Below, one piece after another: positions 20,523-46,061 of a DNA stretch of 49,715 nt. The notes under the pieces are model-generated. The model saw nothing but the letters and a program-made list of their open reading frames with translations, searched no databases and was not told the DNA's origin. A program made the translations under genes and the position numbers. The stretch spans positions 1 to 49,715 of IMG/VR virus record IMGVR_UViG_2851949629_000006. One strand, written 5' to 3'. How positions within the stretch are numbered: position 1 is the stretch's first letter; each line of letters begins with the position of its first letter. Source of the stretch: a virus. Lineage: Duplodnaviria; Heunggongvirae; Uroviricota; Caudoviricetes.

Positions 20523-20752
20523 CATGTCACGAAGGTGTTATGCCAAAAATACGCTACGACCTTGAAGATATGAGAGATAACTCAGCAAATTTTCCGAAAG
20601 AGGTTAAATTTCTCATGCATAAGTATGGTTGCGCCAGGAGGGATATAGTTATCGACAGTCAGCACCCTTGCGGCGAGGATGTAATTTTCATTCGCGGTAA
20701 ATGGGAAGGGTATCTTGACGAGAGTTTTTACGATGAATTTGATGGACTTTGA
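20519..20752 (+). CDS. hypothetical protein
   Basis: 77-aa ORF overlapping neighbours by 4 bp on each side. Confidence 0.35.
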   Translation: MTCHEGVMPKIRYDLEDMRDNSANFPKEVKFLMHKYGCARRDIVIDSQHPCGEDVIFIRGKWEGYLDESFYDEFDGL

Positions 20753-21423
20753 ATACTGCCGCCAACTATGGCGGCTTTATTTTGCATGGTACTATTACCA
20801 CAACGGTAACTATTACCACGGTGGTTATGATGCCTGCTGAACCTAAAACCTATAAACGCAAATCAACGCAATTTAAGCCGCTCACAGCAATGCAGGAGGC
20901 TTATTGCCAGTCATACATCAAAACGCCTGAAAACCAGACTCAGGCAGCGATTAACGCAGGATTCTCCCCAAATACAGCGGCAGTTAAAGCCAGTGTCATG
21001 ATGCGCGATGAACGCATTCAAAAACGGATTGCCGAGTTGATGGAGGAGCGCAACAAACGAATGCGCGTCAGTGCTGATAACGTTCTCATGCGCCTGGTGG
21101 AGATCGACCAGATGGACGTGATCGACATCCTCAACGACGATGGGAGCCTTAAGCCAATACGCGAGTGGCCGAAAATCTGGCGCACTACGCTTAGCGGCTT
21201 TGATCTGTCATCGACCATCATGAACATGAACGAGGATTCGATAGAGACAATCCTCAAAAAAATTAAATGGCCTGACAAGGTGAAGAACCTTGAGCTGATT
21301 GGTAAGCATGTTGATGTCAACGCGTTCAAAGAACGTCTGGATGTTAATGTGAATGTGACAATTGCTGATCGCATAGCAGCAGCCAGGAAGAGACTGAAAG
21401 AACGTCAGGATGGCAATCAGTGA
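20749..21423 (+). CDS. terminase small subunit
   Basis: Position directly upstream of the large subunit with a 4-bp overlap. True start may be the ATG at 20827 (MMPAEPK...). Confidence 0.6.
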   Translation: MNTAANYGGFILHGTITTTVTITTVVMMPAEPKTYKRKSTQFKPLTAMQEAYCQSYIKTPENQTQAAINAGFSPNTAAVKASVMMRDERIQKRIAELMEERNKRMRVSADNVLMRLVEIDQMDVIDILNDDGSLKPIREWPKIWRTTLSGFDLSSTIMNMNEDSIETILKKIKWPDKVKNLELIGKHVDVNAFKERLDVNVNVTIADRIAAARKRLKERQDGNQ

Positions 21424-43975: not shown

Positions 43976-44039
43976 TTTCAGGTAATAAAATAACCCAGCA
44001 TGCGGCGCAACGGGTGCTGCGACTATCTGGAGATTTAAA

Positions 44040-46061
44040 ATGACGGTCTCAACCGAAGTTGGCCACAACGAATACACTGGTAACGGCGTTACGACTACAT
44101 TCCCTTATACATTCAGGGTTTTCGATAAATCTGATCTGGTAGTGCAGATAGTTGACCTTGAAGAGAATATCACTGTCCTGGTTCTTGATACCGATTACTC
44201 AGTAACCGGGGTGGGGGGATACAATGGTGGCAATGTAATGCTGAGGACAGCGTTAACTTCTGGTTATCGTATTTTTGTATCGCGTGAGCTGCCTGTTACG
44301 CAGGAAACAGATCTGCGCAATCAGGGAAAGTTTCTGGCAGAGGTGCATGAGGATGCATTTGATAAGCTGACGATGCTTATTCAGCAAGTATTTTATAACC
44401 TGAGCAAGGTAATAAAAGTTCCTGAATCAGGGAACTGGTTGGTTCCAACAATTAGGTTAAGAAAGAATAAAATCTTTGCATGGGACGAAGAGGGAAATCC
44501 AATTGCTGTATCACCTGAATCAGGTAGTGCCTCTGATGTAATGATTGAGCTGGCAAAATCATCCGGGGCTGGGTTGATTGGCACAACGTCGGGGGGGACC
44601 GTTCAATCAGTACTGGATGAGTGTCATGCAAGGCTCATCACATGTGAGCGCAACAGCCGGGTGGAAAATTTTTACACGCTGGCGGAAACCTGCACAGCGG
44701 AGCTTTTATCGCTGAATGCCCCGGAGGCATATGACAAATCCATTACGCTGACGGTCAATGAGGAACTGACCACGGACTATACCGGTCCGGTCACAGGTCA
44801 TTGCAGCATCGGTAATCCGCATAACTACACCATTGCGATGTGTACGAGCACAACTCTGGAATATCAGGTTTCCTCGGTGGTACTGGAGAGTGACGGCACG
44901 TTCAGTTTCGCCAGAAGCTGGACTGGGGCTAAGTCTTTTAAACTGTATCGTACATCAAATAACGGTCTGGCAACCGTCTGGGAAGATCCGCTGTGTATCC
45001 GCTCTTACCGGATGCCATCGGATGCCGGGGATGAAACGGTAAGGGTGATGAAAGACCGTACATACACTTATGATCAGGCGGTGTCAGCTATTGCACTGAT
45101 GGCGCAGGGGAATAGTCAGGTGGAACAGTTTGTCCGTGGTTTGTGCGCGATTGTGGGTAGTGGTGGTAGCGAGGGGAGTGTGCCTTTTTTCGTGAACCGC
45201 ATGTCAGCGCAGACATCGTCACAGTATTACCGGACGGGAAACGCAGCGTGGGTGGCGTATGCGCTGGCGTATTATCTGCAGAAATATCCGGATGGTGAAA
45301 TGGCCGTTGTTGCCCGGGATAAACTAACGCAGTGCGCAGAGTGGATTGAAACGTTCAGAGTAGCAGACAGTGGTGATATTCGTTATGGGTTGTATACATC
45401 CGGTAGCGGACGGTATCTGGATGGCGTCTTTTACCCTGATTTTAAAGCAGACTGGTGCACATCGGAGCACCAGTTTGATTTGTGGTTTCTGTTTGACCTG
45501 ATGGGGCGGGTAGGCTTCACCGGCTACGCTGAAAAGGCGAAAGCCCTGGCGGATGCCATTATGGAAAAGCTGTGGGTGGAGGATGAAGGGCGATTTTATG
45601 CCGGGATGCGAACCACCGGGCCTGACAAGGCCTCACCACTGGACTGTGCAAGCTGGGGCGGGCTGTTTGTGTACAATATCGATATGGAAAAAGCCCGGCG
45701 GTGTTTTACTTACCTGGACAGATTCTGGTACGCCACGCACGATGCGACAGGGTACATGCCTTATCATCCGGAATATGGCTACCCGAATAAACAGCGGGGA
45801 GTCTGGGTGGAGGGCAGTGCAGGCGTGGCATTGCTGGCCCGTAGACTGGGAGATGATGCCACCGCGATGGATATTCTGGCGAGGCTGGCACCACTGCGCA
45901 CACGTTATGGTTACATTGATTCAAGCGATTATCCAGATAATGATGACATGCCGCCGTGGCCTTCTTCCTGCAACACGGCCTGGATGATACTGGCATGCGA
46001 TCCGCAGGGGTTCTGGAACGTTGGGGTAAGTAGTCTGTCTGGACGTTATTATAGGTATTGA
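44040..46061 (+). CDS. tail fibre/tailspike with T7 gp17-like N-terminal adaptor domain and a predicted enzymatic C-terminal domain
   Basis: N-terminal ...VTTTFPYTFRVFDKSDLVVQIVD...ITVLVLDTDYSVTG parallels the T7 gp17 N-terminus (...DFNIPFEYLARKFVVVTLIG...KVLTINTDYRF). C-terminal ~400 aa is helix-rich with Trp/Tyr/Asp/Glu-rich segments, suggesting an alpha/alpha-barrel glycosidase rather than a beta-helix. Confidence 0.55.
   Translation: MTVSTEVGHNEYTGNGVTTTFPYTFRVFDKSDLVVQIVDLEENITVLVLDTDYSVTGVGGYNGGNVMLRTALTSGYRIFVSRELPVTQETDLRNQGKFLAEVHEDAFDKLTMLIQQVFYNLSKVIKVPESGNWLVPTIRLRKNKIFAWDEEGNPIAVSPESGSASDVMIELAKSSGAGLIGTTSGGTVQSVLDECHARLITCERNSRVENFYTLAETCTAELLSLNAPEAYDKSITLTVNEELTTDYTGPVTGHCSIGNPHNYTIAMCTSTTLEYQVSSVVLESDGTFSFARSWTGAKSFKLYRTSNNGLATVWEDPLCIRSYRMPSDAGDETVRVMKDRTYTYDQAVSAIALMAQGNSQVEQFVRGLCAIVGSGGSEGSVPFFVNRMSAQTSSQYYRTGNAAWVAYALAYYLQKYPDGEMAVVARDKLTQCAEWIETFRVADSGDIRYGLYTSGSGRYLDGVFYPDFKADWCTSEHQFDLWFLFDLMGRVGFTGYAEKAKALADAIMEKLWVEDEGRFYAGMRTTGPDKASPLDCASWGGLFVYNIDMEKARRCFTYLDRFWYATHDATGYMPYHPEYGYPNKQRGVWVEGSAGVALLARRLGDDATAMDILARLAPLRTRYGYIDSSDYPDNDDMPPWPSSCNTAWMILACDPQGFWNVGVSSLSGRYYRY

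Follow-up and report, generated by a model that had tools for sequence, protein, structure and literature searches.

The "epsilon15 homology group", which includes epsilon15, BPP-1, BcepC6B and others, was defined by Hardies et al. in 2016 (Virology), who described homologies between T7 and epsilon15 for the internal virion proteins (IVPs) IVP-A, -B and -D and found that the terminase and capsid of epsilon15 group with those of siphoviruses, which was read as horizontal transfer (PMC4819975). Epsilon15 has been called "well-characterized", and its core exits the capsid and forms a tube across the periplasm (PMC12391199). ZX5, a close relative of the element described below, is short-tailed, integrates at guaA, is controlled by a repressor and an antirepressor, and has been shown in lysogeny experiments to form an inducible lysogen (PMC9782041). 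Tailspikes of the genus Uetakevirus, which have been catalogued in Escherichia coli prophages, combine a conserved anchor with an exchangeable receptor-binding domain (PMC10408124), and the paper on LME-1 refers to Carin-1 as "another T7-like virus" and describes a portal-adaptor-nozzle-fiber complex that closely resembles that of T7 (PMC12407071). Here, we analyzed a DNA stretch of 49,715 nt of the IMG/VR record IMGVR_UViG_2851949629_000006 (hereafter, the window), in which an initial annotation had placed a T7-like morphogenesis module at 20749-46061, inside a temperate lambdoid prophage. For nucleotide comparisons, the virion block was taken as 20749-45700.

It was found that the window very probably represents the prophage form of a temperate phage with a short tail, belonging to the phiV10/epsilon15 group (genus Uetakevirus), and that the interval is its late virion and DNA-packaging operon. 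In a megablast search against 50,697 phage records, the virion block matched phiv142-3 at 96.7% identity over 85% of the query, HEMP4 at 98.1% over 81%, and phiV10 and the O157 typing phages 9 and 10 at 96.4% over 81%; the values for Enterobacter phage Tyrion and Salmonella phage epsilon15 were about 81 and 76%, respectively. The search also returned weak matches to 64 Synechococcus phage records, in the 60-80% identity band. When all phiV10 proteins were compared with the window by tblastn, 15 of the 17 virion proteins were 93-99.6% identical in amino acid sequence and of equal or near-equal length, the exceptions being the fiber, which diverges, and phiV10 p21, which is absent. A synteny map was collinear with phiV10 from the integrase through the early-left region, repressor, replication, terminase, head, tail, internal-protein and fiber genes to the lysis genes.

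A whole-genome comparison with known temperate podoviruses had been proposed as a check on the initial annotation, and besides this collinearity it gave an identity-weighted coverage of 0.77 of phiV10 and 0.75 of the prophage without its insertion sequence (IS) nest. The corresponding similarity to epsilon15 was 0.34-0.35, and the records of phiV10 and epsilon15 are both classified in the genus Uetakevirus. The International Committee on Taxonomy of Viruses assigns a phage to a genus when its genome-wide nucleotide similarity to a member is greater than about 70%. The similarity to phiV10 (0.75-0.77) therefore places the prophage in Uetakevirus and, because it is less than 95%, in a species separate from phiV10. 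Of 5,426 complete E. coli genomes, 506 contained the segment from portal to nozzle, with 95-99% identity, and prophages of the phiV10/epsilon15 type are very common in this species.

The phages phiV10, phiv142-3, HEMP4, vB_EcoP_ZX5 and PAS61 share with the window the order of genes from integrase to lysis cassette, 96-98% DNA identity in the virion block, an identical repressor and the attachment core at guaA. The window differs from this group in the C-terminal receptor-binding domain of its fiber, in lacking the oac O-acetyltransferase gene, in its accessory island (40146-43586) and in its nin-like region (17049-19910), and further differences are its IS66 nest, the amber codon of its replication initiator gene and a 15-amino acid duplication in one internal protein. 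Epsilon15 shares the architecture and the protein families (gp4 portal, gp7 capsid, gp10, gp11, gp12, gp13-17 and the N terminus of gp20), whereas its DNA is only about 74-82% identical over about 45% of the genome, and its replication genes, serotype-conversion genes and tailspike are different. More remotely, BPP-1 (Bordetella), Carin-1 (Cobetia) and LME-1 (Legionella) have a homologous capsid, portal, adaptor, nozzle and fiber anchor, with solved structures (3J4U, 8CJZ, 8CK0, 8CK1 and 9EFK); for the adaptor and fiber anchor, the identity of Carin-1 to the window is 32-39% and that of LME-1 is lower, and the hosts differ. Therefore, the statement that temperate phages with this combination of genes are poorly characterized had to be abandoned, given sequenced isolates that are 96-98% identical, solved structures (3J40, 3J4U and 8CJZ/8CK0/8CK1) and published work on the group (PMC9782041, PMC4819975).

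The open reading frames (ORFs) of the virion and packaging genes were found at the positions and in the order that the initial annotation had given, namely TerS, TerL, portal, scaffold, capsid, a pair of 201 and 823 amino acids, internal proteins and fiber:

20749-21423, + strand: small terminase subunit, TerS (PF03592 Terminase_2, E 4e-30; 99.6% amino acid identity to phiV10 p01)
21420-22895, + strand: large terminase subunit, TerL, not of the T7 gp19 type (phrog_2, 9.6e-53; 98.4% identical to phiV10 p02)
24349-26019, + strand: portal protein of the T7 gp8 family (PF12236, E 7.8e-186, residues 7-496)
26016-26312, + strand: Bbp19-like small head-module protein (PF25181, E 2.8e-17)
26309-27010, + strand: scaffold-position protein of 233 amino acids (phrog_458, 5e-111; 97% identical to phiV10 p09)
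27019-28011, + strand: major capsid protein of the epsilon15 gp7/BPP-1 type, HK97-like fold (PF20911 GP7, 3e-149)
28063-28500, + strand: Bbp16-like capsid cement protein (PF21190, 6e-46)
28502-28846, + strand: small conserved epsilon15 gp9-like protein (phrog_590, 5e-60; 98% identical to phiV10 p12)
28891-29220, + strand: epsilon15 gp10-like capsid protein (PF21628 Gp10-like, 6e-52)
29220-29825, + strand: tail adaptor of 201 amino acids with a predicted T7 gp11/tubular tail A fold (AlphaFold model and Foldseek)
29825-32296, + strand: tail nozzle of 823 amino acids, putative T7 gp12/tubular tail B relative (PDB 8CK1_A)
32296-32760, + strand: protein in the IVP-A position, weakly T7 gp13-like (phrog_308 internal virion protein, 1.8e-62)
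32760-33305, + strand: IVP-B, T7 gp14 family, 181 amino acids (PF24072 T7_gp14, 3.2e-8, 34.1 bits, cut-off 27)
33305-35818, + strand: large internal/ejection protein of 837 amino acids with a muralytic domain (phrog_992, phrog_1044 endolysin, phrog_7182 tail injection transglycosylase)
35815-37662, + strand: internal virion protein, epsilon15 gp16 equivalent (phrog_1145; 94% identical to phiV10 p19)
37668-40142, + strand: 824-amino acid protein in the IVP-D position, epsilon15 gp17 equivalent and T7 gp16 analogue (phrog_684 virion structural protein; 98.9% identical to phiV10 p20)
44040-46061, + strand: tail fiber/tailspike of 673 amino acids, with a phiV10-type N-terminal anchor and a different C-terminal receptor-binding domain

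The portal protein belongs to the same Pfam family as T7 gp8, which matches PF12236 with an E value of 2.8e-113, and in the PDB it matched the Carin-1 portal (8CK0) with 1.3e-174, with no P22 portal-family match in Pfam. The T7 likeness that had been seen in the C terminus of the portal thus holds at the level of the family, whereas the match spans the whole protein and not the C terminus alone. An AlphaFold (AF2) model of the adaptor, based on a 29-sequence alignment (pLDDT 87), was searched against the PDB with Foldseek and matched the Carin-1 connector (8CK1_E, 8.9e-16), the LME-1 adaptor (5e-9), T7 gp11 (7BOX_N, 3.6e-6, TM 0.59) and many other T7-type adaptors, including the tail tubular protein A (TTPA) of KP32. 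P22 gp4 and siphovirus tail proteins were missing from the significant fold matches, and an hhalign comparison of the adaptor profile with the single T7 gp11 sequence was negative. The adaptor is accordingly predicted to be of the T7 gp11 type at the level of the fold only.

The nozzle matched PDB chain 8CK1_A, which is named the "Tail Nozzle" of Carin-1, with 4e-217. When 23 diverse members of the nozzle family (37-51% identity) were compared with PF25675 (Phage_nozzle, the T7 gp12 family), 7 matched, the best with 2.8e-8, and the family profile aligned with T7 gp12 (336-461 against 336-466) with an E value of 1.7e-4 and a probability of 50% (hhalign). The apparent link of the nozzle to T7 gp12 thus comes from the matches of its relatives and from a weak alignment of profiles, and the published hidden Markov model (HMM) of the epsilon15-group tubular tail B matches that of T7 strongly, with an E value below 1e-10 (PMC4819975). 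The lengths of the adaptor and nozzle, 201 and 823 amino acids, compare with 196 for T7 gp11 and 794 for T7 gp12, and the nozzle family comprises 18,303 representative clusters in public data.

At the N terminus of the fiber, an anchor of about 130 amino acids belongs to the T7 gp17 N-domain superfamily. Its profile aligned with T7 gp17 (residues 1-160 used, 10-150 aligned) with a probability of 88% and an E value of 2.9e-6 in hhalign, and its predicted fold matched 8CK1_B with 1e-8 and T7 gp17 (7EY9_a/7BOZ_a) with 6-8e-4 in Foldseek, where the top 21 PDB matches were all T7-type tail fiber anchors, T7 gp17 included. Two fiber homologues, P0068 and P0072 (52-54% identical), pass the cut-off of the Phage_T7_tail family PF03906 with 36-37 bits. 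Therefore, profile and predicted fold both indicate an anchor of the T7 gp17 type, as the initial annotation had proposed. The 181-amino acid IVP-B adds a direct family match, and T7 gp14 itself falls in PF24072 as well.

These matches bear on whether a P22-like (Lederbergvirus) or siphovirus-type morphogenesis module was misread as T7-like, a reading that we consider extremely unlikely. The terminase-first order, the temperate lifestyle and the antirepressor island ahead of the tailspike do resemble P22, the terminase and capsid of epsilon15 were placed with siphoviruses by Hardies et al., and P22 gp10, gp7, gp20 and gp16 have been distantly linked to the epsilon15 tail group (PMC4819975). 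P22 is also, like the phage in the window, a temperate enterobacterial podovirus with ejection proteins and a modular tailspike (PMC10408124). However, the portal of the window is in the T7 gp8 family, the fold matches of its adaptor are all of the gp11 type, and none of the virion proteins matched any P22 structural protein significantly in blastp and phmmer searches, with no sign of a P22-type portal, coat, gp4/gp10 tail hub or gp26 needle. There are also no tape-measure or tail-tube genes, the large ORFs of the module being only the nozzle, the internal proteins and the fiber. Both a P22-like module and a siphovirus tail were rejected on the portal family, the adaptor fold and the missing tape-measure and tail-tube genes, and the outcome that the initial annotation had named as counting against it, a better fit to P22-like or siphovirus families, did not occur for the portal or the tail.

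There are several points that weigh against our reading of the window and of its T7 part. Neither blastp nor phmmer gave a significant match of any of the 17 virion proteins to T7 structural proteins, and so the T7 likeness is visible only at the level of family, profile or fold. Even at E values up to 10, the adaptor did not match the Pfam family Tube (PF17212), the nozzle did not match PF25675 and the fiber did not match PF03906 directly; because a direct Pfam match is absent, the T7 link of these three proteins runs through fold, profile and transitive evidence. The protein in the IVP-A position matched T7 Gp13 (PF11090) weakly, with an E value of 0.088, and with 0.0012 and a probability of 20% in hhalign, and the hhalign comparison of the 824-amino acid protein with T7 gp16, for which a shallow three-sequence profile was used, was not significant. 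As for the element as a whole, it is known from its genes; the window starts at the integrase gene, with attL and guaA lying outside, so that the length of the prophage is a lower bound; and errors of sequencing or assembly could account for the amber codon and for the repeated IS copies. The evidence supports the portal, adaptor, gp14-like protein and fiber anchor, and probably also the nozzle, as remote homologues of T7 gp8, gp11, gp14, gp17 and gp12, respectively, whereas a gp13-like homology of the protein in the IVP-A position is only hinted at.

The head-filling half of the module (capsid, scaffold and terminases) is not T7-like. The capsid scored 411 bits against the NCBIfam equivalog NF045672 (MCP_gp7_epsi_15; cut-off 75), the only addition made by the NCBIfam scan, and matched PDB entries 3J4U (9e-129), 8CJZ (3e-88) and 3J40 (1e-84); in Pfam, it is not in the Gp10A-like family PF21703 to which T7 gp10A belongs. 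The scaffold-position protein has no Pfam family, including that of T7 gp9 (PF05396), and is labeled "protease" in relatives; its role as a scaffold is suggested by the position of its gene. TerL gave no match to the T7 terminase family PF22530 in Pfam and no significant match in a sequence search of the PDB, and TerS likewise fell in no T7 family. Both terminase genes (20749-22895) precede the portal gene (24349-26019), as had been noted, whereas in T7, the terminase sits after the fiber gene. The term "T7-like module" therefore describes the portal, the tail parts and the gp14-like protein, and does not extend to the capsid (PF20911), the scaffold and the terminases, a split between a T7-related tail and a non-T7 head that was already published in 2016 (PMC4819975).

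Set side by side with T7, the window has in common the Pfam families of the portal and gp14, the adaptor and fiber anchor folds, a nozzle tentatively linked by profile, and a gene order that runs from portal, scaffold and capsid through adaptor and nozzle to internal proteins and fiber. It differs in the families of its capsid, scaffold and terminase, in the place of the terminase ahead of the portal, in having three large internal proteins where T7 has two, and in being temperate, with an integrase and a repressor. It also has no phage RNA polymerase, in agreement with the initial annotation: such a domain was found in no ORF of at least 600 amino acids, and all of these ORFs are the nozzle, internal proteins or the fiber.

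It might be supposed that the element is a new hybrid, formed when a lytic T7-like phage (Autographiviridae) recently recombined with a lambdoid prophage, since the portal, the gp14-like protein and tail parts are T7-related and the genes for replication and lysogeny are related to lambdoid ones. To this, we assign a negligible likelihood. The whole genome follows the gene order of phiV10 and epsilon15, its virion block shares 96-98% identity with isolated phages, the capsid, the scaffold and the type and position of the terminase are not those of T7, and the module occurs in hundreds of E. coli genomes, as given above. Because the similarity to T7 is too remote for pairwise detection, any shared origin must be ancient. 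A recent hybrid of T7 and lambda is thus refuted for practical purposes by the collinearity, the remoteness from T7 and the non-T7 head genes.

The five internal-protein genes span 32296-40142 on the + strand. In the 837-amino acid protein, residues 248-403 matched Gp29 in PDB entry 9VVP with 2.9e-38 and an endolysin in 7Q47 with 1.8e-16, which delimits a domain of about residues 249-403; the record of epsilon15 gp15 mentions a lytic transglycosylase. The gene at 35815-37662 contains a 45-bp in-frame tandem duplication at 37483-37583 (self-match of 37483-37538 with 37528-37583), and as a result of the duplicated 15-amino acid stretch DDDGNPQSRRAREVL, its product has 615 amino acids compared to 600 in phiV10 p19. 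Sequence searches of the PDB with the 615- and 824-amino acid proteins gave no significant match. According to the literature, where deeper profiles were used, epsilon15 gp17 is the homologue of IVP-D (T7 gp16), and gp15 and gp16 are candidates for IVP-C, so that counterparts of T7 gp13, gp14 and gp16 are supported and that of gp15 is unconfirmed (PMC4819975).

The protein identities given here can be placed in a model whose assembly and ejection steps we infer from epsilon15, Carin-1, LME-1 and T7, the virions of which have been solved or imaged. Once the repressor is lifted, the host RNA polymerase would transcribe the late operon, there being no phage polymerase, and TerS and TerL would pump DNA through the T7 gp8-type portal into the epsilon15 gp7-type capsid, which would also carry the Bbp16-like and gp10-like accessory proteins. 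The gp11-type adaptor ring and the gp12-type nozzle would close the portal and hold the tailspikes by their gp17-type N-terminal anchors, with the exchangeable C-terminal domain of the tailspike reading a host surface polysaccharide. At infection, the five head-packaged internal proteins, that is, the small gp13- and gp14-like proteins, the large protein with a cell wall-cutting domain and two further large proteins, would be ejected and form a channel across the cell envelope.

Outside the virion genes, the following features were identified:

1-1257, + strand: P4-type tyrosine integrase, at the left end of the prophage within the window (PF13356 Arm-DNA-bind_3 and PF00589 Phage_integrase)
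1550-9169, - strand: nest of IS66-family elements, 7,620 bp (PF03050 and related IS66 families, repeat map, terminal repeats)
13462-14046, - strand: prophage repressor (PF01381 HTH_3; 100% identical to phiV10 p40)
14798-15569, + strand: replication initiator with an HTH_36 domain (PF13730; assigned to the DnaT family in the phiV10 record)
15570-16364, + strand: lambda P-family replication protein (PF06992, 4.2e-53)
23624-23700, - strand: tRNA-Arg (TCT) between terminase and portal (ARAGORN; present as well in the annotations of O157 typing phages 9 and 10)
40146-43990, no strand assigned: accessory/regulatory island, not structural (GC 0.44-0.46; DUF4760, AntA)
46149-47955, + strand: lysis cassette of two holin-family proteins, a GH19 endolysin and an Rz-like spanin (PF16931, PF05449, PF00182, DUF2514)
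48066-48082, + strand: attR core at the right prophage end, ATTGAGTGGGAATGCTT, with one mismatch to the published attP core

The integrase is 99.5% identical to phiV10 p31, whose record gives the label INT_P4 and thus agrees with the P4-type integrase of the initial annotation, and the lysis proteins are 82-96% identical to phiV10 p27-p30. For phiV10, epsilon15 and ZX5, the attachment core has been published as ATTGAGTGGGAATGATT (PMC9782041). The similarity to phiV10 ends exactly at position 48082, the end of the att core, and the host genes yfgI and yfgH follow next on the - strand, within 48066-49231. The core, the end of the similarity and the two host genes together indicate a prophage of the phiV10 type and agree with its insertion at the 3' end of guaA, which is the usual site of the group.

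The lambdoid functions that had been listed proved to be a mixture. The P protein, the HTH_3 repressor and an AntA antirepressor were confirmed, whereas the supposed O protein is the HTH_36, DnaT-like initiator, which gave no match to the lambda O family in Pfam, and the "cro" candidate, a divergent 76-amino acid ORF at 14201-14428, has no recognizable domain. Among the early-region ORFs scanned against Pfam, from which some small ORFs were left out, no match to N- or Q-family antiterminators was found. The label "lambdoid" holds only in a loose mosaic sense. At 10895-12654 on the - strand, RecT and a PDDEXK exonuclease are encoded as two overlapping ORFs, as in epsilon15, and the phiV10 record has a single RecE-RecT fusion of 586 amino acids.

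Of the interval 20749-46061, about 3.9 kb (40146-44040) is accessory or regulatory in nature rather than structural. The ORFs of the low-GC island at 40146-43586, between the internal-protein and fiber genes, encode a 98-amino acid membrane-like protein, a DUF4760 protein, the AntA antirepressor (41486-42142) and, on the + strand, two proteins of 171 and 193 amino acids without a family, and the island is mostly unrelated to phiV10. In PADLOC, the accessory ORFs gave no defense match other than an MT-A70 methyltransferase, reported as a generic type II methyltransferase. Between terminase and portal, the tRNA-Arg gene overlaps a small + strand ORF homologous to phiV10 p04, and a 115-amino acid repeat-rich ORF with MSGDV/NGS-type repeats (22981-23328, - strand), for which no Pfam or PADLOC family was found, occupies the place of the unrelated phiV10 p03.

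An 8-bp direct repeat, GATAATCA, stands on either side of the IS66 nest, which contains TnpA, TnpB and TnpC genes and interrupts a calcineurin-like phosphatase gene (9548-9170 plus 1549-1260, - strand). Within the nest, there are repeats of a 1,958-bp unit (99.9% identity) and of a 583-bp unit (100%), in addition to a third copy that is 92% identical and one partial copy. The repeated 537-amino acid ORFs at 2144-5714 were considered as a tandem gene array, which was rejected because Pfam identified them as IS66 transposases. A comparison of translations showed that codon 183 of the initiator gene (15344-15346) is an amber codon, TAG, where phiV10 has CAG (Gln), and the prophage may be replication-defective as a result. 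Within the window, the prophage is at least 48.1 kb long compared to 39.1 kb for phiV10, with a contribution from the nest; the genome is about 20% oversize owing to the IS66 elements, and at 48.1 kb or more, it probably exceeds the capacity of a capsid of this type.

With these features, this copy looks damaged outside its virion operon. It may no longer be a phage at all, but a decaying or domesticated prophage in which an intact virion operon persists and replication has been lost, which we regard as possible though unlikely. The amber stop, the 7.6-kb nest with the resulting length, and virion ORFs that are all full length (tblastn against phiV10) fit with this. On the other hand, the virion proteins share 93-99.6% of their residues with their counterparts in active phages, so that the damage may simply have occurred recently; the amber codon could be read through by suppression, or be an error; and there is no sign of selection on the module. 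Decay would moreover concern the state of one copy and leave the identity of the module unchanged. This copy may well be non-viable despite its intact virion genes. The combination of an intact virion operon, the initiator amber codon and an oversize genome also makes it possible that the element is retained for the production of particles, with a use in transduction or as a helper, and is not a self-propagating phage, with a fiber of a receptor-binding type uncharacterized in the genus, but this is very improbable.

Beyond about residue 130 (44430-46061), the fiber is unrelated to the phiV10 tailspike, and its C-terminal domain has no Pfam family. Its nearest phage relatives are a tail protein of phiSTEC1575-Stx2k (52%) and a protein of the jumbo phage ph0011 (47%), and more remote ones are found among proteins of Microbacterium and Thermus phages (24-30%), with the minor tail proteins of Microbacterium phages at about 29%. 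The oac gene, which lies 3' of the fiber gene in phiV10, was not found in the window by tblastn.

Taken together, a temperate genome that has a P4-type integrase and encodes a tail and internal proteins related to those of T7 is the defining architecture of an already known and common genus, and the finding is real but ordinary. In public annotations, the adaptor, nozzle and internal proteins are mostly called "hypothetical protein", and the assignments given here could replace these labels. The swapped fiber domain might serve in the typing of O-antigens or host range and in the engineering of tailspikes, in line with the tailspike catalogue of Uetakevirus prophages (cf. PMC10408124).

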